From the NCBI RefSeq assembly GCF_033153115.1, contig NW_026889750.1, positions 33,542,001 through 33,606,000 on the forward strand: DNA of 64,000 bases, read 5' to 3'. The notes beneath the pieces are model-generated. The model ran no database searches and was not told the origin of the DNA. It saw only the letters and a list, made by a program, of their open reading frames with translations. This document shows, piece by piece, positions 5,536-46,100 of this stretch. Each line of letters begins with the position of its first letter. Position 1 is the stretch's first letter. Source of the stretch: Saccostrea echinata. Its lineage: Eukaryota. The position numbers were made by a program, and so were the translations under genes.

Positions 5536-6917
5536 TCATATCTGCTGTTGTGTGTTAAAAGATACATGTAAATCAATGTCACTGTTATGATGTAGAGTAG
5601 AATCTCTCGTAGTTTTTCTGTCTTCACCCGTTTGTAACACAATGTCAGTTGTGAGATTCTCACAGTTTATCAATGCAGTGGAGACACTGGCTGCACTGTT
5701 TGTGACGTCATTATTGTTCTGAGTTTCATTATTGTTTGCTGAACTTGAGTCCATAGCAGAACTTTCGCTGGAGATGGAAAATACTGCCGAACCAGTTCCC
5801 TCCGATAAATTATTCACTGCTCGCCTGTCTTGCTCCATTTTCATTGCTGAGTCATAAGAAGGGAGATAATTTACATTTGTCTTTGAATATTTCCCAGGAT
5901 ATGGTGGTGGTGGGTCATCGTATCCAAAGCAGGAAATGGAGGATATAGTTCGATCTGCAATACGGACAAAATTTTTTGATTGCATTAAAGCTATTTGCAA
6001 AAACACTTTTTTTATTCTCTGTTCTATTCTGCATATGAAAATTCATGTTTTGTGATCCACGGTTTTCTTTTCTATAATATAAAGCAAGATATGATGTGCG
6101 TTTGATGTTTAAACATTTAACAAAAAGAAATTTGATAAATCTTTGAAATTTGCAATGTAAGCCACAGACTTACGAAGTCTTTCAATTCTTGTGCCCTCCA
6201 TTTCTGACCTTTCACCCGAGAGTTTATTGATAAGCACCCTGAGGAAGATTACTATCACAATCGCTGCCATACCGCCCAGGACGGAAAGAATCACTGGATC
6301 CTCCAGTACATCCGTCTGGTATCCTAGCAACGGGTCAAACAATACTTATATTGACCATGTGCATATCTGGGTTGACTATCATGTTGTTAATTTTGAAATT
6401 ACTGAAAAGAGGTAAATGCAAAATTATCATGCTTTAAGTTTAATTTTCATTTAACTCCACCCAGTAATTTCAAATTTTGAGGTATGATATAACTAATACT
6501 TATAGACATCAGGCTAGAAATAGGCTGCTCATCCCTAAAACCATATTCATCGAAATCGCATCCTATGAATTAGTCAGTAATAAATGCTGTATGGGTAAAG
6601 CAATTTTTAAAGAAAACTAATTATATACAGACATGTATATACATTAATCATGAAGTGGATTTTTTTATATAAAACAAGCCATATTTAATTTCTTCGCTAA
6701 ATATTACTACAGAGATACTTACGGTACTTATTGGGATTAACAGTTGTAATATGACTGGGCACAAGAACCACAGTTGTATCATCTAGGCATAAATAAATAA
6801 ATGAATAAGTTAAAATATTTGAAGGTTATTGGACCCTAATATCCATTTGAAATACCAAAAATGCCATCGATTCAATTATTACATGTCTTGTCACTTACCT
6901 GTGCTATTATTTGCCAT
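5536..6917 (-). CDS. Single-pass membrane protein with PPxY and LPxY motifs, paralog A (about 215 aa)
   Basis: Exons 6917-6899 (MANNST), 6782-6723, 6323-6174 (TM: PVILSVLGGMAAIVIVIFL), 5954-5536 (DDPPPPYPGKYSKTNVNYLPSYDSA); three phase-1 introns, all with GTAAGT donors; 648 nt in frame to stop. Confidence 0.85.
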
Positions 6918-9970: not shown

Positions 9971-11449
9971 TTATATATTCTCTTCATCACTGGACCTTCT
10001 GGGATTTAAAGTTATTCCATCAACACATATAGATGTCTGACGTGGGGAACGTTCAGTTTCTTCACTAAACACCTGTTGATCATCTGTTCTAGGTTCACAC
10101 TCTCGATTTGTCAAAAGTTCATGGCACACTTGGTTAGAGACCGAATCATTTTCTGTCTCTTCATTGTTCATATGATCGCTATGGTCTAAACCAACACTCT
10201 CATCCAAGACAGAAAATTCCGATTGTGGAGTCATTTCATTGATACTGCACATCCGCAACTCGGGTGCCATTTTGATTGCGGAGTCATAAGAGGGGAGATA
10301 ATTGATGTTGGTTTTGGAATATTTTCCTGGATAAGGTGGAGGGTCATCGGAAAATGGAGTCGGTGATGGTGATACTGCTGGTTCGCTTTCGTGATCTGTA
10401 CAATAATACTGAACACTTAGAACTCTTAATAAACAAGATACTTTTGACGAGGGTAGGATAATCTAAGAAATGCATCTATTCTTTATCATTCAACGATGGC
10501 TTGAAAATAATGTTTTAAAATTCTCCATCTAATCATCTGCTTCATGTTTCTATGTTGTCTAGGATCTAAGCTCTTTATGTTTAGTCCACTATATAGACAA
10601 CCACTTCTGCATGTTAGTAGAATGACTTTATCTCATTGAAACATTCTCTTATCTTATTGATACAATGCCAATGGTCCTCAATGCTATATTATTTATTTAA
10701 GTTTTTTTTTATTCTAATCTCATGTTTGTAGTCTCTATGATTTGTTGTGTCTAATTTTTTACCCAGTAAACTGGTTCTCTTACCTCCCCTCCTGGTTTGT
10801 CTATGGTGTCTGTACTGCCGATTTTTAATTCTACTAATAATTTCCCTCCCTAGAAACAAAATTCCAATGAAAAGGATCACCCCGGTAATAGCCATAAACA
10901 CTGGGTCCTCCATTATAAAGACCTTTTGTTCTGAATTCAAAAAACGCCCTAGTTTGTATCTTTTTCAAGCATTCGAAGATGGAGATGGATGAGTTACATT
11001 CAAGAATACATAGATTTTTATAAACAATGTGAGCGACATGGTTAAAGTGAAGATAAATATAACAAAGCTAATTTTTTCCATTTTACTGAGAAGATGAGCA
11101 TACAGAGAGGGTCTTGACAAAGTCTAATACTTAATAGGGTGATAATGATGGTGTCAGTGTTTTGAGACCCTTTATCTATCCTGCTATTTCCAAATTTATG
11201 ATATTATTTCCCTACCTTTTATGTTCGTTATGATAATATGACCCACTCCATTGGTTGGCAAGGAAGCCTGGGGGTCTTCTTCTACAAAAAAAAAACGAAT
11301 TAAGATTTTTTTTTTTTTTACTATAATATTCTACTTTCCGTGCAAAATCTGAATCATTGTGCATTATTGATGTTTTAAGGAGCCATTTCATTCAGCACTC
11401 GATGCTTTTGTTTCCCTACACTATCCATACCTGTACCATTTGTATCCAT
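9971..11449 (-). CDS. Single-pass membrane protein with PPxY and LPxY motifs, paralog B (about 218 aa)
   Basis: Exons 11449-11431 (MDTNGT), 11281-11216, 10930-10784 (TM: PVFMAITGVILFIGILFLG), 10395-9971 (DDPPPYPGKYSKTNINYLPSYDSA); all phase 1; 657 nt in frame; same exon layout as paralog A. Confidence 0.85.
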
Positions 11450-16058: not shown

Positions 16059-18255
16059 TTACAGCCGAGACTGATTATTAGGAACGTCTAAATCGTTCAC
16101 AATCTCTCCCACATTATCTGCTTCAGAGTTTAGTGATAGGCTTCCAGTAGCCCCTTGTAAATCACTTTCTACAGTCATACCTTCTCCTCTTTCAATATCT
16201 ATAGAAGTATCTGTTGGTGGGTGTACAGTGCTCACCTGTCTATCAATGTCGTAATTCACAAAGTTTTCTTGAGATGTTTCTAAGTCTCCACCCACCATGA
16301 ACACTACTACATCATTACCGCTTTCACTTGTTACTTCTGATGTAAGCGCCTTTTGGTCAACTTCCTCCTCCTTGGCCCTTGCCACTTCCGCTGCGTCACG
16401 GACCCACTGCAGACGTCGATTAATTTCAATTGCCGATTCGTAAGAAGGAAGATAATTCACATTTGTCCGGGAATATTTACCAGGGTAGGGAGGAGGTTCG
16501 TCAGCAAGCCAGTGGAGAAAAGAAGGACCGGGTCGAATACCACCTAATAAAAGAAAAGTCATGTTGCAATATTTCTTTCAAAATTTTATATGGGTTATTT
16601 TTTATAAAAAAAGATTCTATTTGATCTCAGAAACCAAGATTTACATAATCTGCAAAAATATCAAAAGTCAAGAAGCTGCAACATGAATCTTAGGGATTTT
16701 AATCTTCAATATTTTCAGAAATGGAAACACGTTAGCAGCAATAATTTTTGATAAGGGTTTTCCATACAATCATTTCCTGATTTTCATAAAAGGTTGATAA
16801 TTTGAAAGTTTAAATTAGAATTTGACCATCTGTTGTCTAGTTATTTTTTTTAATCGAATGATAACAGATTCAGTAGATAATTCACATTTGAAAAAGCAAA
16901 ACGAAAAGTTAACTAGAATTATATTATATTCTTAAGCTATCCGTCTTTGAAAAGTGGTACACAGTACTTCATTCATTACACATTCTACAACGTACAATAT
17001 GTAAGAAATAAGATTGCGTATATTTACAAATCCCATATACTGTTTCTGCTTGAATATTTTTCTAAATCAATATACACGTAAAAACAATAAAGGTATATAC
17101 GTAAAGCAGGCATAACATTTTAATCCTTGGATGTTATACTAGACTTCAGTACTTCCGATACCTATGGACCTTTACGGAAAAAACAAAAATTTTCCAATTC
17201 TACAAAAAGATATAGAAGATTGCAAAAAAAGGTCATTTTCTATAATATTAGAATAAATTGCAAATAAGTTTTTGAGAGAAAAAGTTAAAAGATTTGTATA
17301 AAAAAAGGGGGGATTAGAGACTTGTCAATTGTTTATCTGAGGCATAAGATCCTTTTTGAAAAGGTAGGACTACTGGTTTAACATTGTCATACGTACTACA
17401 TGTGTTGTTATTGGGTCGTCGAGGAGTCCTTATAAAGGATATGATGGATTTAACAGTAAATATCATCCCTATGAATACAATAACGCTGGATACCACGGCA
17501 ACCAGATGGACAGTCCCTTCTTCGTCATATCCTGTAAGGGGACACAACTTTCACTGTAATCCTACGTATTAATACAAGATTTTAGAACAATTAATTATGT
17601 GAAGAAACATCATACGTGTACCTTCACACATTGATTGAGTATATGAAATACGTAGTCGTGTATATATAAACTTCTTTGACCTTCAATCCTGTTATCAATA
17701 AATTATTTCATTTTTCAAAGTTAATTTACTTTGCTTTGGTGTATCATAAAAGTCGTGGTGGACTGATGGAAGTGTGGTTGTTGTTTTCTCAAGTAATGTC
17801 GATGAGTCACCTGAAAGCAATATTGAGTGCTGACCATGCATAAATATTTCTTGTGGAAATTTGAAGTAAGTGAATATTTACTTGTAATCACATGAATTCA
17901 AAGATCGCTCACAACTAATGCTCTCATGATCAATTTTATTAAGCCAGTTGGCAAGATAAGAGATAACCAATTAATGACTTGCATTGTCCTTCTACCAAAA
18001 ATGTTGAAAATAGTCTCTAGATTTTTTGACAATTAAAACTTTGTCAGAAGAACAAGATCTAAGAAACGAGAAATATAGCAAAGTCTTGGGATATGTTTGC
18101 ACTTATGAAAGAAGAAAAAATAATTATTTCTGCAGTTCGATATAAAAAAAATTATTGTCTATATGGTAAATAGCTTCCCCTGTGATCTACTTACCAGCCA
18201 ATAGAATTGAAGTGCTGCTGTTCTCATCAGCTACACCTGTAACATTGTCGTGCAT
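16059..18255 (-). CDS. Single-pass membrane protein with PPxY and LPxY motifs, paralog C (about 253 aa)
   Basis: Exons 18255-18195 (MHDNVTGVADENSSTSILLA), 17810-17730, 17531-17397 (TM: VHLVAVVSSVIVFIGMIFTV), 16543-16059 (DEPPPYPGKYSRTNVNYLPSYESA); all phase 1; 762 nt in frame. The exon 2 and 3 donors (GTAAAT, GTACGT) are less certain. Confidence 0.8.
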
Positions 18256-19529: not shown

Positions 19530-21890
19530 ACGAACAGTATTCAAGCTCATAGTCCACTTAAACAATACAAATCGGGAGCAGAGCAAACACGTACCACCAA
19601 AAACATCATAGAAGGGATCAGGTGCCATGGAGGAGTAAGCATCCGCTGTCGACCGGCCACACCCGCCGAGTGCTCCTTGTCATGATCGGGTAAACGGAAA
19701 AATCCGCACAAATTTTAGTGTAAATAATGGCCTAACAATCAGTATGAAAATTGTCAGTCAGCATTTGACATAATGATAGATATCGTATTTGCCGATAAGG
19801 TCATTGTATCGACCATAGAACTTGCGAAATGATGACTTCAAATGAAATTGTTGATATCCTTATTTCATCAACTCATTGGTTAATAGCTTCTTTCCTTTCA
19901 AAAATTAATCGTACGTAAAGCATGCTCTTGCATATCGAATCAACTGGGAGACGTAAACCCCATATTCAGATGATCAGGGTATATTGCTACATAAGTAAGG
20001 GAAGTTGACGATAGAAAAGTTGAAGTCATCACGTTTATCATAAAGTTTTATTGTTAAGTTACCATTAACGTCTTTTTCTAGTGAAATATCCTAATATAAA
20101 ACAGATGTGTAAGAATCTGTGGTGTCTTTTATTTCAAGTTCACTGGGATATATCGAATCGACATAAGAATGGAAGTTGCTATTTGTTAAAGGTGCTTAGA
20201 CACAGAGTTGAACTTAATATTTTCTCAAATTTTCTGTATAATATCACGACTTATATATTGCAATAACATTTCACACGAAAATATAATTAAAAACTTATAT
20301 TTTATCTGGAAATTATTGGAACTACGAATTCTGGGACGCGTTTGATTAACACATCTTTGTACTTACACGAATTTAACTTTATCCTTAATATTTAAGAAAA
20401 GAAGCGATTTTGTTATGTATTAATGAAAAATATTACATCTATAATCCAGAAAATTCAGAGTAGAAATGTTCGAAAGCAAAACCAACTCATCAGTATTGTC
20501 AGTCCATGCTCTGTGACGTGTACAGACTTTAACAAATTGAACACACCCGTGAAACGTAAACTGTTTTTGTAATCAGGGCACGAGCTCTGTTATTGTTAAT
20601 GTTTACGATTCATCGAGTATGTTCAATTGTTAAACTCTGCACACACCACTGAGCACGGACTTACAATACTGTGTGTGGGTTTTGCTTTCGAACATTTCTA
20701 CTCTAATTTTCTGGGTTATAGTTTGAATATTTTTCATTAATACACAACAAAATTGCCACTTTTCTTAAGTATTAAGAATAAAATTAAAATATGTGAAAGC
20801 GCAAGGATGTGTCAATCCAACGCGTCCAGAAATTCGAAGTTTTAATAACTTCGAGATGAAATAAGATTTTTATTAAATTTTAGTATGAAATGCTATAATA
20901 GCAACATATAAGTCATGAAATTATACAGAAAATTTGAGAAAATATTAACCTCAAATCTGTGTCCAAGCACCTTTAATTTATAATACGTCGTCGATACATC
21001 TAAATGTCCAGTTGAAGGCCACATATCGCGTTTTCTTCTTCTCATGTAGAAGTTTATGAAAAAAAAATCTGCTTCAAATGAATACCAAAATAGGTCTGCT
21101 AATAACAGGGGTCCAATTGGTATCCATGGGAATTCCAACAGATCGTGGAAGACCTGATCTTCAAAAACTACAAAGATATATCTTGTCAATCAGAAACCCA
21201 AGCATCTTTTTAATATCAACTTCAGAGTTCTTGTGTGTACAATCAGAATGTTTTGACAAAACAATTTTGCAAATGACCAATGACAAGGTAAGTATATTTA
21301 CGAGTTCCCTTTTTATTGAAAAAGCAGCTAACTATGATGTCAAATAGAGTGGACTTCAAATTAGGGGGGGGGGGGGGGGTGGCTTTATTAAGTGTTGAAA
21401 AGTCGTACGTTTTGATGTTATTGATTTTGTCAAAAATTTGTGATTTCAAATTTTCTAAAAGTTCCTTGTTTATAAGAATCCACATCTGATTTACACCACT
21501 TCTCAAATATACTGTTGTACAGTACTCCTCAAGTTTCTCCTTCACTGCTGTAAATATTTTAGTGAAGAGTAATCAAAGAGGCAGGACATTTACTGGAAAT
21601 CCGCTATGTATCTTTGTTTGTAATGATTTTTATGGAGTTTTGAAATCCAGTATAGGTATGGTATTTCACATTCATTCTGATTGTTGGGAATATTAAAATA
21701 TTTAAAACTGACATAAGGCTCAGAAGAATTTCCACCTTAGAAAGGGAGCTATGGGTATACGTTGGATTACCACTTGCAGAATTAAATCCTAGTTTCTCTA
21801 AAATACAATTCAAATAATGAGCCTTACAAACAAAGACAATGTTGTTACCTGTTTTGTCAGCTGGGACCAGTACATATATACTGATCGTGT
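19530..21890 (-). mobile_element. Decayed, 5'-truncated Penelope-like retroelement (reverse transcriptase pseudogene)
   Basis: Frameshifted RT motifs in order: VPADKTGNNIVFVCK, GVNQMWIL, IKTYDFSTL, GIPMD (GIPMG-type)..PLLLADLF, CIDDVL (YIDD-type), FHSYVDSIYPSELEIKDTT; continuous across the 20190-20972 insertion; conserved 3' motif at about 19610-19670. Confidence 0.8.
20190..20972. mobile_element. Foldback non-autonomous DNA transposon, Kolobok-like
   Basis: Imperfect inverted arms of about 370 bp; termini AGGTGC...GCACCT; TTAA on both sides (20186-20189, 20973-20976). Confidence 0.85.
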
Positions 21891-25027: not shown

Positions 25028-25665
25028 TAAATTTTGATATACCTATACAATTTTCTTCGAACAAAATTGAGCATTATTAATATGACTCTGTCTCTTATGC
25101 ATCCTGCTATCTTTTAGTAACCAAGGATATGTGTATTTAAACTACACACCACGGGTGTAACTTTTTTTCTACTCATAATGTTACATTCACCGTTTTGTAT
25201 AAATGCTTACATATATAAATTATTATGTTAATTAACCTTTTACCTTTTGCACATTATTTTTTCAAGTTGTCTCTAGTCATCATAACATATTATACAAACT
25301 GAACTAAGAGTTGATTCTCTAAGTTTCATTGTATCTAGTCATCATATCATTCTATTACTATACAAAGTGAACAATGAGCTTATTAGTTACATGTACATTG
25401 TACTAAACCGTTATATGTGCATTATTATATAATCATAAATTGTTATATGTCATGCCCCATGAGGTCCTAATTTGGAAATCTCTCTCACTCTCTCTCTCTC
25501 TCTAAATATGCGTTGATCAGTCCACGTAAACTCAATTTTATGTTACATCGTTAAGATAACTGACGATATCAAACGTAAAATATTTTTATCACTTTAAATT
25601 ACAGAATCACTGTCAATCTTGAGCAGTGTTTCAATTCTTCTGCAGCAATTAACCTGACGTCAGAC

Positions 25666-27895
25666 TCAACTTCCACAACCTCCACATCCCCCACCACACC
25701 CTCCACCTCCCCCATCCCCTCCCCCTCCATCACCGTCTCCATTTTCTCCTCCCCATCCAGATATACCCCAGCCTCCACCACTTTCTTGTTCAAAATATCC
25801 ATCACTATATTCACTTTGATCAATGTCATAAGTTCCCAAAATCGCCTCATCATCATTTTCGGATGGTTGACAAAGTACTTGCAAAACATTGATACAAAAT
25901 ACAAGTGCAATATTTTCCGCACTATCTGTACGAGAAATGTTTAAAGTACCTTTGGAAAAATCAGTTATAAAACTCTGAGGTTTGACTTTAAAGTCATATC
26001 GCAACTGTTCACTGTAAATGTTTTTTTTCGAAGGCTTCCCAACTGTAGGCAATCTAAATAATGTGACCTCTAAGTGTCCTGGACTTCCTTTATGTGCTCT
26101 ACCTGCCTTATGTTTGGTGGCTAAAATACAAAAAATTCCAACATACTGGTAAAATATAACACCCTCTGAGAAAGACAAATTATAATTATATACTTTACAA
26201 TTTACCTTTTACTCCTGGAACACCTTTCCTGACACCTGTCCATCGTCCAACTAATATAGCCCAGTCACCTTCATTATTCTTTATTATCATTGCTTGTTCA
26301 CCATCTTGTGGTGAGAGAGAAATTGGGGGATTCTCCACAGAGGACTGAACCTATTAAAATACAAAATAAACTTTTTGCAAAATTTTCTTGCAGCTTTTGA
26401 AAAAAATATGTATAATGTATGTGCTTTATTTGAGACACTGAAAACTTGTTTATTTGTAAATGTACAAACTCTCGTAAAACTAATAAGTAGAATTTTTTCA
26501 AACCTGAGATGGAGTTGGCAGAGTGTCAGAACCTATCAAATGGCAGACGACACTCAACTTATCGTGATAGTACACGTGAACCACTGACGTCATCAGTGAC
26601 GAACTGTGTATTACGCGTGCTGTGAACATCACTTCTCCGTCTGCGTTTCGTATTCTGAGAAAAAAATAATAATTTCAGAGGAGTGTTATTAAAATACCTT
26701 TATCTATGAGCGCTTTATAACAAATATTTTAGTTTTCCTTTCAACTTACCTGTGATTTGCCACAGAACAACTGTTGTCCACTCCTTCAGGAAGGCGAGGT
26801 AGAGGCATAGGTCCCCAGAGGACTTCGTTGTGTTCCGGAATTAATGTCATCTCAAAGTTTCCTGCTTCCACCTTCAAAACACAGTCTCTGGATTCTGTAA
26901 TCTTGATCGTGTGATGAAGATCAATGGATTCTCCGTTAGATAAACGCACAGTTGAAGACACTTCTGATGAAAGTCTTTTACAATCCTGCAATAATTCTCT
27001 ACAAGTTACTCTGCCGCTTCCAACTAAGGTTTTACTTCCAAATTTCCCAAGAGCGCCGTACTTAAAAAGTTCGATATTGATGGATTCAACCATCTCTGTG
27101 TCGATGTCATATATAGGTATATTGTGGGAGGATGTGCTCCATACCCCTGGACATGCTTCTTTAGCATCAAAAGTTCTTTAACTACTCCATTTCTGAACAC
27201 TGCACTAAGTTTCAGTTGATGAACTTTCAAAGCAGACGTGTAGTCTAAAATTTCTACTTTGTTTAATTGAAGTTTTAAGTGTTTGAAACAGTGCTTGTCA
27301 ATTACTTTGCTGGAAACCGTGAACAGATGACCTTCCGGTGGTTTACCTCTGTACATGGCACCGAATTCTGAAAAGTTCGTTCCAAAAGCTTCCCGCCATA
27401 ACATTCGTGTCTCCTTATCAGAGACTACGAGTTTTGATCCTTCTCTCCTATCATTGACGGAATCATCGTGGTTAAACAATTTCATTAATAATTAGCAGTC
27501 ACATTTAAATTGCTTTAACATACAAGTGGGGGACTTCTTTTGCAATCGCTGGCAATTGATTCATACGATATTCTCATGGACCTACTAGAACATGTATATC
27601 AACATTCAGGTACACACACCACAATGGTCTCCTCTAAACAGGTTTATCAACATACTTTCGACCACAAAGGAGAAGCGTTATTATACGGACAGAGACAGGT
27701 GACGGACAGACAACCAGGCAAATCATATTAATCAAAGAATAAAACTTAATGTCTGAGGCACCTGAATATGGCGAATGTGAGGACAGGTCCTCCATAGAGA
27801 GAAGGGTATTTGTCTATTCTTGTAAGAAAGGCCAGTTCTTTAGTGGCTGCTGCCTGCAAGTCAAAAGAGAATACATAATTCTCCATTTCTCTCAT
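25666..27895 (-). pseudogene. Damaged tandem duplicate of the GRDP/DUF1399 gene
   Basis: Exons 27895-27762, about 27482-26750 (remnant), 26654-26504, 26350-26206, 26120-25666 match the copy at 36221-46342. Lacks about 520 nt of exon 2 including its acceptor and both WHxH motifs; 1-nt deletion near 27145 (CAG GGG TAT versus CAG GGT GTA). Lies between two assembly gaps. Confidence 0.8.
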
Positions 27896-28545: not shown

Positions 28546-28685
28546 NNNNNNNNNNNNNNNNNNNNNNNNNNNNNNNNNNNNNNNNNNNNNNNNNNNNNNN
28601 NNNNNNNNNNNNNNNNNNNNNNNNNNNNNNNNNNNNNNNNNNNNNNNNNNNNNNNNNNNNNNNNNNNNNNNNNNNNNNNNNNNNN
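28546..28685. other. Assembly gap
   Basis: Run of N. Confidence 1.
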
Positions 28686-29155: not shown

Positions 29156-29408
29156 TAATTGGTGACACATAAAAAAGAACGGCATGACTGCCTTTGTGGT
29201 TGTCATAAACAATTTATGAAGTTCTGGAAACGTAAAGAAAGTTTCTCGATCAACTCAAATTATTCCGATATCCGCAAACAAGGTTGTTATTCTTAATTTT
29301 TAGCTCAGCTGAGCCAAGGATTTTCTAGAGACTTTCTTTACGTCTTCCCAATCTCATAAATGTTTATGACAACCACGAAGGCAGTTCTTTTTTATGTGTC
29401 ACCAATTA
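29156..29408. mobile_element. Palindromic MITE
   Basis: TAATTGGTGACACATAAAAAAGAAC..GCCTTTGTGGTTGTCATAAACA is mirrored by TGTTTATGACAACCACGAAGGC..GTTCTTTTTATGTGTCACCAATTA. Confidence 0.8.
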
Positions 29409-36220: not shown

Positions 36221-37503
36221 TTAACCCCCACAACCACCACAGCCTCCACCACAACCTCCCCCATCTCCCCCACCACCACCATCCCCTCCCCCTGAATCAC
36301 CACCCCATCCCCCTCCATCACCGCCGCCCCCACTGTCACCTCCCCATCCACCGCCACCATCATCTCCTCCTGTATCTCCACCCCAGCCACCACCACCACC
36401 ATCATCCCCGCCGTATCCTCCAGTGTCTCCATCCCAGCCACCACCACTTTCTTCTCCCCCATGCCCGTCGCCCCCTCCACAGCCACCACAACCACCACAT
36501 CCTCCTGGATCGCCATCAGCAGTGTCCACATTCCCATCATCACCATCTTCATCTGCCAACATATTTTCAAAATCCTCATCTTTACAACAAAACATTGCTG
36601 CCTCCCACTGGTCAACCTCTTTATCATCGTCATTGTCATCGTCGTCGTAAACATCTGGCTCATTGAAAGGAGTATCAGATGAATGCATTGGCTCACTCAC
36701 AGTGCCACCAGCATAAACGGGCGTCACATGCTCCTTATCTTCTTTCTTTTTCTTGAAGTGCTTTCTTAGCAGATGATTTGATGGTGAACAAATTTGGAAT
36801 CCAAAAGCCATGACCAAAGCTAGTTTGTCTACCGGAAATTCTTTCTTCCTGCTAACATACGCAGGCATGTCTAGCGTAGTTTCCTTGACTGGTTCCCAAT
36901 CTGGCGGTCTGGGTTGACAAAGTACTTGCAAAACACTAATACAAAATACCAGCGCAAGATTTTCGGCTCCATCTGTTGGAGAGATATTAATTGTACATTT
37001 GGAAAAATCTGCTACAAAACCGTGAAATTTGACTGTGAAATCATAGTAGCGGAATTGTTCACTGTCAAGTTCAAGTATCGAACGCTCCCCAGTAGGTAAT
37101 CTATACATCGTGACCTCTAAGTGGCCTGGACTTCCTCGTATTGGTGCTCTGCCTGCTTTATATTTGGTGGCTAAAATAGAGGAAATTCAGATTGAACATT
37201 GAAGTTTAATAATAACCCCTAGGCCTACCTTTAATTTCTAGAAAGACAATTATAGTTTATGTTAAACAATAGATTTACCTTTCACCCCCGGTACACCCTT
37301 CCTGACGCCTGTCCAGCGTCCAACTAATATAGCCCAGTCGCCATCGTTATTCTTTATTATCATAGCTCGTTCTCCTTTTTGTGGTGAGAGGGTAATTGGG
37401 GGATTCTCCGCAGAGGACTGAACCTATTGCAATAAAATTACACAAGGAAAGTAACTTATTATGTTCCCCAAACGGAGTTTGGGAACATATTGTTTTTACT
37501 CTG

Positions 37504-37538
<35 letters not shown>

Positions 37539-43130: not shown

Positions 43131-43181
<51 letters not shown>

Positions 43182-46100
43182 AGAGTAGACAAGATGACAT
43201 GGTCATCATGCACATGCATGCATATGCATGCACGTGCGCGCGCGTGCAATGTGTTAAATGACTAATATAATTAATATAGCCGTAATTTTTATATTTTTTG
43301 ATGAAAAGCTTTGATATTAAGAATATATAGATATATTAAAAGTGTAGACAAGATGATTTGGCTATCATGCACATGCATGCACATGCGCGCGCGTGCAATG
43401 TGTTAAATGACCAATATACTTAATATAGCCGTAACTTTTATATTTTTTTATGAAAAGCTTTGATACTATGAATTAACAGACATATTATAAGTGTACACAA
43501 AATGGTATGGTCATTATGAACATGCATGCATGTGCGCGTGCGCGCAATGCTAAGATGACCAATATGCTTGATTTAGCCGGAACTTATATATTTTTTGATG
43601 AAATGTTTTGATACTGAGAATATAAAGATGCATATATAGTATAGACAGGATGACATGGTCATCCTGCACATGCATGCACGTGCGCGCGCGTGAAATGCAA
43701 AAAATGACCAATATACTTCATTGCCTTATTTAATGAAGCTTACAGGAAAAAAGTCACCAAAAGGGAGTTGGGGAGCGTTTGGGGAACATCTGTAACGGTC
43801 CCCGTTACAATTATAACTAGTTTAAGTTCTTATTAGCAATTTCAAAATGAAAAAGATCTTACATTTGTTTTTGTTTAAAAGAGGTTAAATTCATGTACAT
43901 ACAAATAATTGTAAAAAGAAATCTCTTAAAACCTAGAATTATTAGATTTTTTTATCAAACCTGCGCTGGCGTTGGTAAGGTGTCAGGGCCTATCAAGTGG
44001 CAGACGACACTCAATTTATCGTGATAATACACGTGAACCACTGACGTCATCAAAGACAAACTATGTATTACGCGTGCTGTGAACATCACTTCGCCGTCTG
44101 CGTTTCGTATTCTGAGAAAAAAAAAGATTTAAAATTTCAGATGAGTGTTATTAAATACTTTTTTGTCTATGAACGCTACATAACGAATATTTCAGTTTTC
44201 CTTTCAACTTACCTGTGATTTGCCACAGAACAACTGTTGTCCACTCCTTCAGGAAGGCGCGGTAGAGGCATAGGTCCCCAGAGGTCTTCGTTGTGTTCGG
44301 GAATGATGGCCATCTCAAAGTTTCCCGCCTCCAGCTTCAAGGCACAGTCTCTAGATTCTGTAATCTTGATCGTGTGATGAAGATCAATGGATTCTCCGTT
44401 AGATAAACGCACAGTTGAAGACACTTCTGATGAACGCTTTTTACAATCCTGCAATACTTCTCTACAAGTTACTCTGCCACTTCCAACTAAGCTTTTACTT
44501 CCAAATTTCCCCAGAGCGCCGTACCTGAAAAGTTCGACATTGATGGATTCAACCATCTCTGTGTCAATATCATACATAGGCATATTGTGGGAAGATGTGC
44601 TCCATACACCCTGGACATGCTTCTTTATCTTCAAAAGTTCTATATCTACTCCATTTCTGAACACTGCACTAAGTTTCAGTTGATGAACTTTCAAAGAAGA
44701 CGTGTAGTCTAAAATTTCTGCTTTGTTTAATTGAAGTTCTATATGCTTGGAACAGTGTTGGTCAATGACTTTGCTGGAAACAGTGAACAGATGACCTTTC
44801 GGTGGTTTTCCTCTGTACATGGCACCGAATTCTGAAAAGTTCGTTCCAAAAGCTTCCCGCCATAACATTCGTGTCTCCTTATCAGAGACTACGAGTTTTG
44901 ATCCTTCTCTCCTATCATTGACAGAATCATCGTGGTTAAACAGTTTCCCTAGAAGAGTTTCTGTATCTTTTTTATAACCTACCGGGTGAACTTGATGTGA
45001 ATGCCAAATTAAGTCAACATCATAGCACGGAACAACAAAAGATTCTGGATTTAGACGCTTTAATGTTAGAAATTGCTTGTACCGCTTTATAGCGTTTTGA
45101 AGAAACATTTCATCAGTATAATGAGGCAGGGATACCTGATAGTAGAACATTTTCTGTCTTCCTGCTGCCGCTTCCAAGTCATATTGAATGCAAGATTCGT
45201 ATGAAGGTGGTTTGATTCCCGTTTCGACGAGATTCACATTGAAATTAACATCCGGGTATTTCTTGGACCATAGCTGCTCTGTACCCGCGGCGTCTACAGT
45301 AGGTGTTAGGCTGTGGTTGACTTCAGTATTACAGGTCCGCAGACAATCGTTGATGTACGCCACAGGAGCTAGTAAATGACAATGCCACACCCATGCAATG
45401 TCTAGTGGGGCAGTCAGAGTCAGATCCTTATGTTCTGCAGCGAATGGCAACCACAGTGTCTCATACCTGCATTGACGATTGATGAGTTAAACCAGTAGGT
45501 ATTTGTATTTATATAATTTAATTTCAACGTCCGCTTTAAGAAAATGTCCCCAGGACGATTTTAGTAATACATGAAACATTTTGCAAAAATAAATGCACAA
45601 TTTTTTTTCAATTAAGATAAATATACTATTGCTACATGTATTTTAGTGTAACTTCACATTCAATAATGCCTTTAATGGTCTTAATGAATCTAAATTTATA
45701 TTCACTGAACATTTATTCCTTTATTTCTTATGAAAACAACTTCCTTAATAAATCCATTAATGTTTAACTAGTTAGAACCGGTTTTCAAAGGCCACCTTTT
45801 TGAAATATTTCAGTAGGCTCTTCCATCAATGAAACATACCATGACGTGCAGATCAATAATACTATATTTTACATACTTAACATAAATCTAAACAATAAAA
45901 TGTCTCTCTTTAATTTGGTAATTTATGTGGGATTAACGGTTGCAACCATTACAGAAAAAATTACATAATTTTACGTGGGTTTTGTGGTAGCAACCGTTTA
46001 TTTCCGCATTAACAAAGAAAGCACTTAATTAAATTGCTTAAATATTCGCATTTAGGTACATAAACGCATAATGGTCTCCCCTTTCATAAACATCCTTTTG

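Follow-up and report, generated by a model that had tools for sequence, protein, structure and literature searches.

A four-layer nest of HINE/DINE-1-type elements in an intron of Saccostrea echinata and the recurrence of head-behind-head stacks

Introduction

How does a single intron come to hold four mobile elements whose 5' ends lie directly behind one another and whose 3' ends follow much later? The locus that raises this question lies on contig NW_026889750.1 of Saccostrea echinata (assembly GCF_033153115.1, positions 33,542,001 to 33,606,000 of the forward strand); this stretch of 64,000 nt is called the window throughout. A first-pass annotation had described four Helentron-type elements here, each inserted into the (TTA)n tract of the previous one. 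Our analysis points, with a probability of about 0.8, to a four-layer HINE/DINE-1 nest, likely formed by three separate rolling-circle insertions into a resident (TTA)n tract 23-49 bases behind the 5' hairpin. The nest works like a HINE nest and is one by most of the features that we compared.

Results

Architecture of the Nest

The block at 37459-43820 is a bracket-perfect nest, A(B1(B2(B3))), composed of four non-coding elements from two families (Table 1). The hairpin heads start at 37461 (A), 37538 (B1), 37588 (B2) and 37647 (B3); the first three positions agree with the first-pass annotation, and the last was off by one base (37646). All four heads fold as hairpins with z values of -4.6 to -7.7, and none of 200 shuffles folded as well. 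The CTAG ends lie at 39513, 41118, 42726 and 43820. The 3' hairpins of B1-B3 are individually weak when compared to shuffles (z -1.2 to -1.3).

Table 1. Coordinates of the nest, its host intron and gene, and the matching intron of the paralog (positions in the window).
Feature	Position	Strand	Description
Element A, 5' module	37456..37537	+	TTA, 13-14 nt subTIR, inverted repeat (hairpin), T-rich spacer, (TTA)10 as left half of the microsatellite
Element B1, 5' module	37535..37587	+	hairpin 37538-37564, 23-nt spacer before the next head
Element B2, 5' module	37585..37646	+	hairpin 37588-37614, (TTA)5, next head after 32 nt
Element B3, uninterrupted	37644..39513	+	head 37647, (TTA)8, core, about 3.4 x 433-nt unit, 3' subTIR to 39488, hairpin, CTAG
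B2 remainder	39514..41118	+	(TTA)3 resumed, core, 2 x 433-nt unit, 3' subTIR, hairpin, CTAG
B1 remainder	41119..42726	+	(TTA)6 resumed, core, 2 x 433-nt unit, 3' subTIR, hairpin, CTAG
A remainder	42727..43820	+	(TTA)4 resumed, core, 149-nt tandem repeats with (AT)24, 3' subTIR 43777-43789, hairpin, CTAG
GT-AG intron holding the nest	37424..43960	-	6537 nt; host intron of 35 nt on the acceptor side and 140 nt on the donor side
Matching intron of the paralog, no stack	26351..26503	-	153 nt
Host gene	36221..46342	-	glycine-rich domain-containing (GRDP-like, PF07173) protein

Each head opens with a subterminal inverted repeat (subTIR), the complement of which is found 24-31 bases before a CTAG. 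Perfect head/tail runs of 12-14 nt are present in all four elements, and the best match is always to the own type of tail. The A head shares a run of 14 nt with the A tail at 43820 and of only 1 nt with any B tail. For the B1 and B2 heads the run is 13 nt with the tails at 41118 and 42726 and 11 nt with the B3 tail; the B3 head matches the tail at 39513 over 12 nt and the other B tails over 11 nt. Behind the CTAGs at 39513, 41118 and 42726 the TTA tract continues, and next to it comes a core motif common to all four bodies. Since TTA tract and core follow one another in the same way in the uninterrupted B3, the stretch behind each of these tails is the interrupted element next out. The order of the tails by itself is only one of 12 arrangements. 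Together, the head/tail runs and the resumed tracts uphold the proposed last-in-first-out order of the four ends, including the pairing of the distinct B3 head with the first tail and of the A head with the A tail. B1 and B2 are inseparable by their ends, and their assignment follows from the nesting logic.

Element A itself lies in the host intron; the sequence behind its CTAG is TTTAAG, not a TTA tract. The nested insertions thus number three, and the resumption of the tract, claimed for every CTAG, applies to the three inner ones. The inner heads start 49, 23 and 32 bases behind the previous hairpin, and the entry point of B2 is the first unit of the TTA tract of B1. All eight junctions are bounded by TT, and the TTA phase is continuous across the three inner ones. 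An exact search revealed no other occurrence of the head and tail motifs of the nest in the 64-kb window. The nest block is free of N; the window has N gaps elsewhere (326 N in total).

Identity of the Elements

Judged by sequence, the four elements are best classified as DINE-1/HINE-type non-autonomous Helentrons. A (TTA)n tract follows the 5' hairpin in all four and represents the short microsatellite of this group. Central tandem repeats are present, with units of 433 nt in B and 149 nt in A. Stems of 7 bp follow directly after the subTIR in B1-B3 and represent the 3' stem-loop; in A, a 7-bp palindrome is present in the sequence at 43792-43809, and it is not part of the lowest-energy fold. 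No ORF of at least 100 aa was found inside 37459-43820, and the nest elements gave no Rfam match. The anatomy thus bears out the earlier assignment to the Helentron type.

Canonical Helitron1 elements start with 5' TC, lack subTIRs, end with a 3' hairpin and CTRR, and use an A^T target. We considered and rejected such an origin: the CTAG end and the 3' hairpin are present, but the elements start with TTA and have subTIRs at their ends. The combination of a CTAG end with subTIRs has been noted for oyster elements in the accessible part of PMC7992393.

According to the accessible text of three papers (PMC4067079, PMC2374699, PMC7492417), hallmarks of HINE/DINE-1 elements are subTIRs of 11-15 nt near both ends, a 5' hairpin, a microsatellite, central tandem repeats, a 3' stem-loop, lack of coding sequence, and TT targets without target duplication. 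As far as described there, these elements, including the oyster Cg_HINE, and the nest have in common the 5' subTIR with inverted repeat, the microsatellite, the central repeats, the 3' subTIR with hairpin, the TT-flanked ends and the non-coding nature. The microsatellite is (TTA)n in the nest, whereas it is of the GTCY type in DINE-1 and Cg_HINE. In comparison with those descriptions, the three-part central unit of 433 nt, the CTAG end and a longer target, T-N-N^TT, set the elements studied here apart. By eye, the A and B subTIRs and microsatellite matched none of the 11 Cg_HINE families of Crassostrea gigas in Table S2 of PMC7492417, and the word "nested" has no match in the main text of that paper.

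Divergence among the B Copies

The bodies of B1 and B2 differ at 99 of 1587 aligned bases (93.8% alike, 6.2% apart), and the differences are evenly spread, with about 3-10% per 150 nt. B1 and B2 had been described as having identical heads and identical tails. This is correct for the last ~50 nt, the only identical stretch; the heads differ at one base. The B3 body is 78.5% alike to both B1 and B2 (21% apart). With the B1/B2 differences so evenly spread and B3 at this distance, an assembly that is collapsed or doubled is excluded, as is one tandem duplication.

A relative-rate test of B1 against B2 with B3 as outgroup gave 27 versus 23 private changes (p=0.67), i.e., no difference. On this sequence measure, B1 does not appear older than B2. 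The test thus did not confirm the suggested outer-to-inner order of insertion at this locus, and a B stack assembled beforehand could have moved in as a whole.

In the B elements, the 433-nt unit (at 37846-39322, 39645-40668 and 41259-42281) is a higher-order repeat made up of three subunits of 148, 148 and 137 nt. Each of its subunits is marked by a ACTTCCGGT motif, which we take to resemble an ETS-type binding site.

Host Gene and Intron

The nest makes up 6362 of the 6537 nt of its intron, and 175 nt remain without it. This agrees with the earlier estimate and is close to the 153 nt of the paralog intron; the inflation, given before as about 40-fold, is 37-fold. On either side of the nest, the exons (43961-44112 and 37278/9-37423) have open frames. 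The closest protein found, from Saccostrea cucullata, is 92% identical, the next ones 44%, and it aligns across the intron without a residue gap (463-514, then 514 on). Run X1 contains an RNA-like contig that differs from the window at one position; it shows a splice at 37170/37279, and its match to the window ends at the exon edge 37425. The host gene is hence transcribed in the near-identical organism of run X1, and the nest-bearing intron is likely spliced there, in an individual that may lack the nest.

The comparison of reads and contigs from runs X1, X5, X6 and X11 covered 36700-37760. As a search for the empty site, no contig among those listed from these four runs crossed 37459 from the left flank, and the paralog intron aligned only loosely to the flanks of the nest. 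The head depth in three large runs was thousands of times the exon depth, which is not a copy number.

The heads lie antisense to the gene and only 35 nt from the 3' splice site of the intron (37424-37458); any branch point would have to be either within these positions or inside element A. In the upstream paralog (25579-27895), the frame changes around 27144-27162 relative to the Saccostrea protein, as expected for a pseudogene or an assembly error, and an N gap is located on its far side, near 28600.

Head-Behind-Head Stacks in Other Sequences

A scan for the B hairpin in 28 of 64 parts of a metagenome collection yielded 121 loci. We kept 40 of them, which had one of two assembly prefixes, 33% GC and a head in element context, and which likely represent animal host DNA. 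The other 81 loci were dropped; they had other contig names and a GC of at least 0.35, and none showed a TTATTA-like 5' context. The head pattern gave no match in the viral contig and genome contig collections.

Among 52 exact heads at the 40 kept loci, which possibly come from one species (two prefixes) and within a stack are not independent, 21 had another head at most 100 nt upstream, compared to 8 of 413 control flank bins. The automatic test had given 22, and one (L023) was removed by eye as a false mark. All but one of the 21 nested heads start 9-44 nt behind the previous hairpin mark. Half of the loci (20/40) hold at least two and up to five heads, mostly of different subfamilies, with mixed stacks of three to five in L027, L035, L063, L072, L094 and L096. 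A B head follows an A-type head in L121; in L027, an A-type head follows a B head and is itself followed by three B heads. Nesting therefore crosses families in both directions, A in B and B in A. Head-to-head junctions are likewise spanned by DNA contigs from three other organisms, whose exons are at most about 91% alike; at one of these joints an A head lies behind a B3-type head. A landing site just inside the 5' end that acts across families, as the first-pass annotation had put forward, is thus found in the nest and beyond it.

In almost all contigs of the 40 loci, no more than tens of bases follow the last head. The search for 3' ends in these loci gave a single match, which was spurious and lay on the strand opposite to a head, and the stacks are known from their heads alone. 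The B1-B2 junction of the nest is matched by L118 at 98.5% over 67 nt in another flank, as a hot spot or a moved composite would give. By eye, degenerate heads are the outer ones in eight stacked loci and the inner ones in three. This is the direction expected for nesting, but the search pattern biases the count, and we did not build on it.

In L020 (1100-1160) and L027 (2430-2470) the inner heads lie 0-9 nt from the resident hairpin, before the microsatellite proper. This position fits targeting close to the hairpin better than targeting of the tract.

Target Motif and Expected Nesting

To our knowledge, the target choice of Helentrons/Helitron2 has been described only as "TT in T-rich DNA". 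We compared 30 un-nested heads with an intact 5' side; L026, the 5' side of which is broken, was left out. A T was present six bases before the subTIR in 30/30 heads, compared to a background of 0.35 before TT (p 1.5e-14), and TT was present at the 5' junction in 28 of them. The bases between this T and the TT vary, even in the same subfamily, and the favoured five-position context before TT is T-A/C-T-A/T-A. We conclude that insertion has a strand-specific 5' context, T-N-N^TT, for which (TTA)n is the best match. If an element is bounded by TT at either end, as described for HINEs, its insertion at T-N-N^TT preserves the TTA phase, and the nest offers three examples of this.

The landing zones are on average 6.3-fold richer in the motif than the background (8 zones, range 3-12); the value for the B3 zone is 18-fold, and the zone of A holds 44% of the motif weight of A. 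With a head density of 5e-5 to 2e-4 per base per strand and an enrichment of 6-10-fold, the motif alone predicts a nested share of 1.5-8.8%, a rough value based on the 5' half of the motif, 30 sites and a density from broken contigs. The observed share is 40% (21/52), so that insertions behind heads are enriched among the 40 contigs, as had been predicted, relative to the 2-9% expected. This suggests a motif that is necessary but insufficient for the nesting rate. None of the 30 un-nested heads follows two TTA units. For the nest, the motif-only chance per step is about 0.003 for the newest zone and 0.03 for any zone, which for a selected locus is indicative only.

Discussion

Proposed Mechanism and Alternatives

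In the mechanism that we propose, the RepHel (HUH) protein of an autonomous Helentron, which was not found here, would act in trans on A- and B-type elements. In line with established Helitron biology, these would move in single-stranded or circular form and would be joined at T-N-N^TT without target duplication. Every new copy would bring a fresh tract on the same strand behind its hairpin, so that insertion would be co-oriented and repeatable and would leave both resident ends in place. Because the motif falls short of 40% nesting, recruitment of the transposase by the resident 5' hairpin probably contributes as well, or copies with several heads multiplied afterwards.

The same pattern would arise passively if a (TTA)n-like preference and the location of the tracts were sufficient and the resident hairpin played no role. 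The landing zones, 3-12 times above the motif background, agree with this, and co-orientation follows from a strand-specific motif. We nevertheless regard this explanation as rather unlikely, since the share it predicts is far from the 21 of 52 heads observed, several inner heads lie at short or T-run sites (L020, L032, L072 and B2 in the window), the un-nested heads do not follow TTA pairs, and the chance per step in the nest is low even as an indicative value. Somewhat less probable still is that pre-built composites moved as units that extend between the outer 5' end and a later 3' end, or that partial rolling-circle replication repeated the heads; the number of heads would then overstate the insertions, and depth would not reflect the order of age. 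Transposition of multi-5' FoHelis as units (accessible part of PMC5148889) and arrays in which many 5' ends share a single 3' end (work of Xiong et al., reviewed in the accessible part of PMC12628747) are precedents, near-identical adjacent heads occur in L012, L032, L113 and L119, and L118 and the inseparable ages of B1 and B2 point in the same direction. The metagenome stacks, known from heads, could partly be multi-headed composites or head duplications. In the nest, however, four 3' ends are retained in the matching order, an outcome that neither published model yields alone; most stacks mix subfamilies; and the same outer junction is found with different inner heads (L039/L063, L035/L119), while by eye no exact pair of outer and inner head is repeated among the 20 stacked loci.

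A selected safe harbour, in which the TTA tract is kept because insertion into a resident copy spares the host and favours the family, appears improbable to us. The three inner insertions added 5.3 kb and left the host sequence untouched, both flanking exons are open and the gene is transcribed in the near-identical organism, all of which would suit this idea. But 30 of the 52 heads lie outside other heads, and the microsatellites of the 11 Cg_HINE families are different ones, such as GTCY (Table S2, PMC7492417), so that the position of the tract is a family trait that does not need a safe-harbour role. That the block is mis-assembled, or that B1 and B2 arose by local tandem duplication, is hardly credible: the locus is repeat-rich and N gaps exist elsewhere in the window, but B1 and B2 differ evenly, B3 separates their heads from their bodies, which no single tandem duplication achieves, the block contains no N, and like stacks occur in independent assemblies.

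Comparison with Known Systems

One of the closest systems is FoHeli1, a Helitron2-like element of Fusarium oxysporum. The accessible text of PMC5148889 reports a T-N-A-T target context, repetition of the first 31-85 nt, and multiple 5' termini. In the model given there, an element first inserts into another copy of itself close to the 5' end, and the segment between the outer 5' end and the first 3' end is then mobilised. According to the part of PMC13342296 that is accessible, 8 of 15 long FoHeli copies in one isolate are multi-5', and up to five termini occur in another. As described in these two sources, FoHeli1 and the nest share the 5' hairpin, asymmetric inverted repeats, a target of the T-N-A-T type and the explanation by self-insertion. 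FoHeli1 is fungal, belongs to one family and has multiple 5' ends with one 3' end; the nest, in contrast, is from an animal, combines two families with unrelated subTIRs that insert mutually, has all four 3' ends in order, and uses the microsatellite of the element as landing zone. Arrays of many 5' ends and one 3' end are attributed to partial rolling-circle replication in the review cited above (PMC12628747, in part). From the accessible descriptions, SaTar MULEs of guayule and rice resemble the nest in that several non-autonomous families cluster by insertion into microsatellites; they differ in being cut-and-paste elements that form explicitly non-nested arrays and use the host microsatellite between elements as target (PMC5907723).

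Self-insertion near the 5' end is thus already known from the fungal FoHeli, as far as the two cited sources go, and is less new than the first-pass annotation implied. New are the recurrence of heads behind heads (21/52), the crossing of families both ways, and the longer target. The accessible parts of PMC3879986 and 10.64898/2026.02.10.705023 describe no nests, and we found no account of HINE-in-HINE nests in molluscs in the literature searched, which covered subscription journals and Repbase Reports incompletely. The nest corresponds to the complete, unresolved precursor that the FoHeli self-insertion model needs; with all its 3' ends, it supplies what has been missing for the multi-headed FoHeli copies.

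The T-N-N^TT context, combined with a nesting rate above the motif-only estimate, offers a direct and cheap test of recruitment by the 5' end. As a tentative generalization, Helentron-type transposases might home on a resident 5' hairpin, with integration 10-50 bases behind it even between families with unrelated subTIRs, which would place about 40% of copies in one another; this behaviour might be shared from fungi (FoHeli) to molluscs, and complete nests might then be readable, ordered records of activity. On the practical side, stacks inflate introns, as in this gene, and interrupt short-read assemblies directly after the heads; for oyster repeats, they will distort both the consensus sequences and the number of copies counted.

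Other Features of the Window

Self-BLAST revealed long imperfect palindromes or fold-backs at 20186-20976, 29156-29408, 47475-47658, 49004-49144 and 58535-58642, which by their sequence likely represent MITE-type insertions. An open frame of 342 aa at 50460-51488 (+) gave no Pfam match; it reads like the C-terminal part of what is presumably a non-LTR retrotransposon protein. Three related last-exon-like frames on the minus strand (5536-6042, 9971-10462 and 16059-16577) share a PPPYPGKYS..NYLPSY motif and, adjoining CUB-domain exons at 929-2246, form a tandem gene family.
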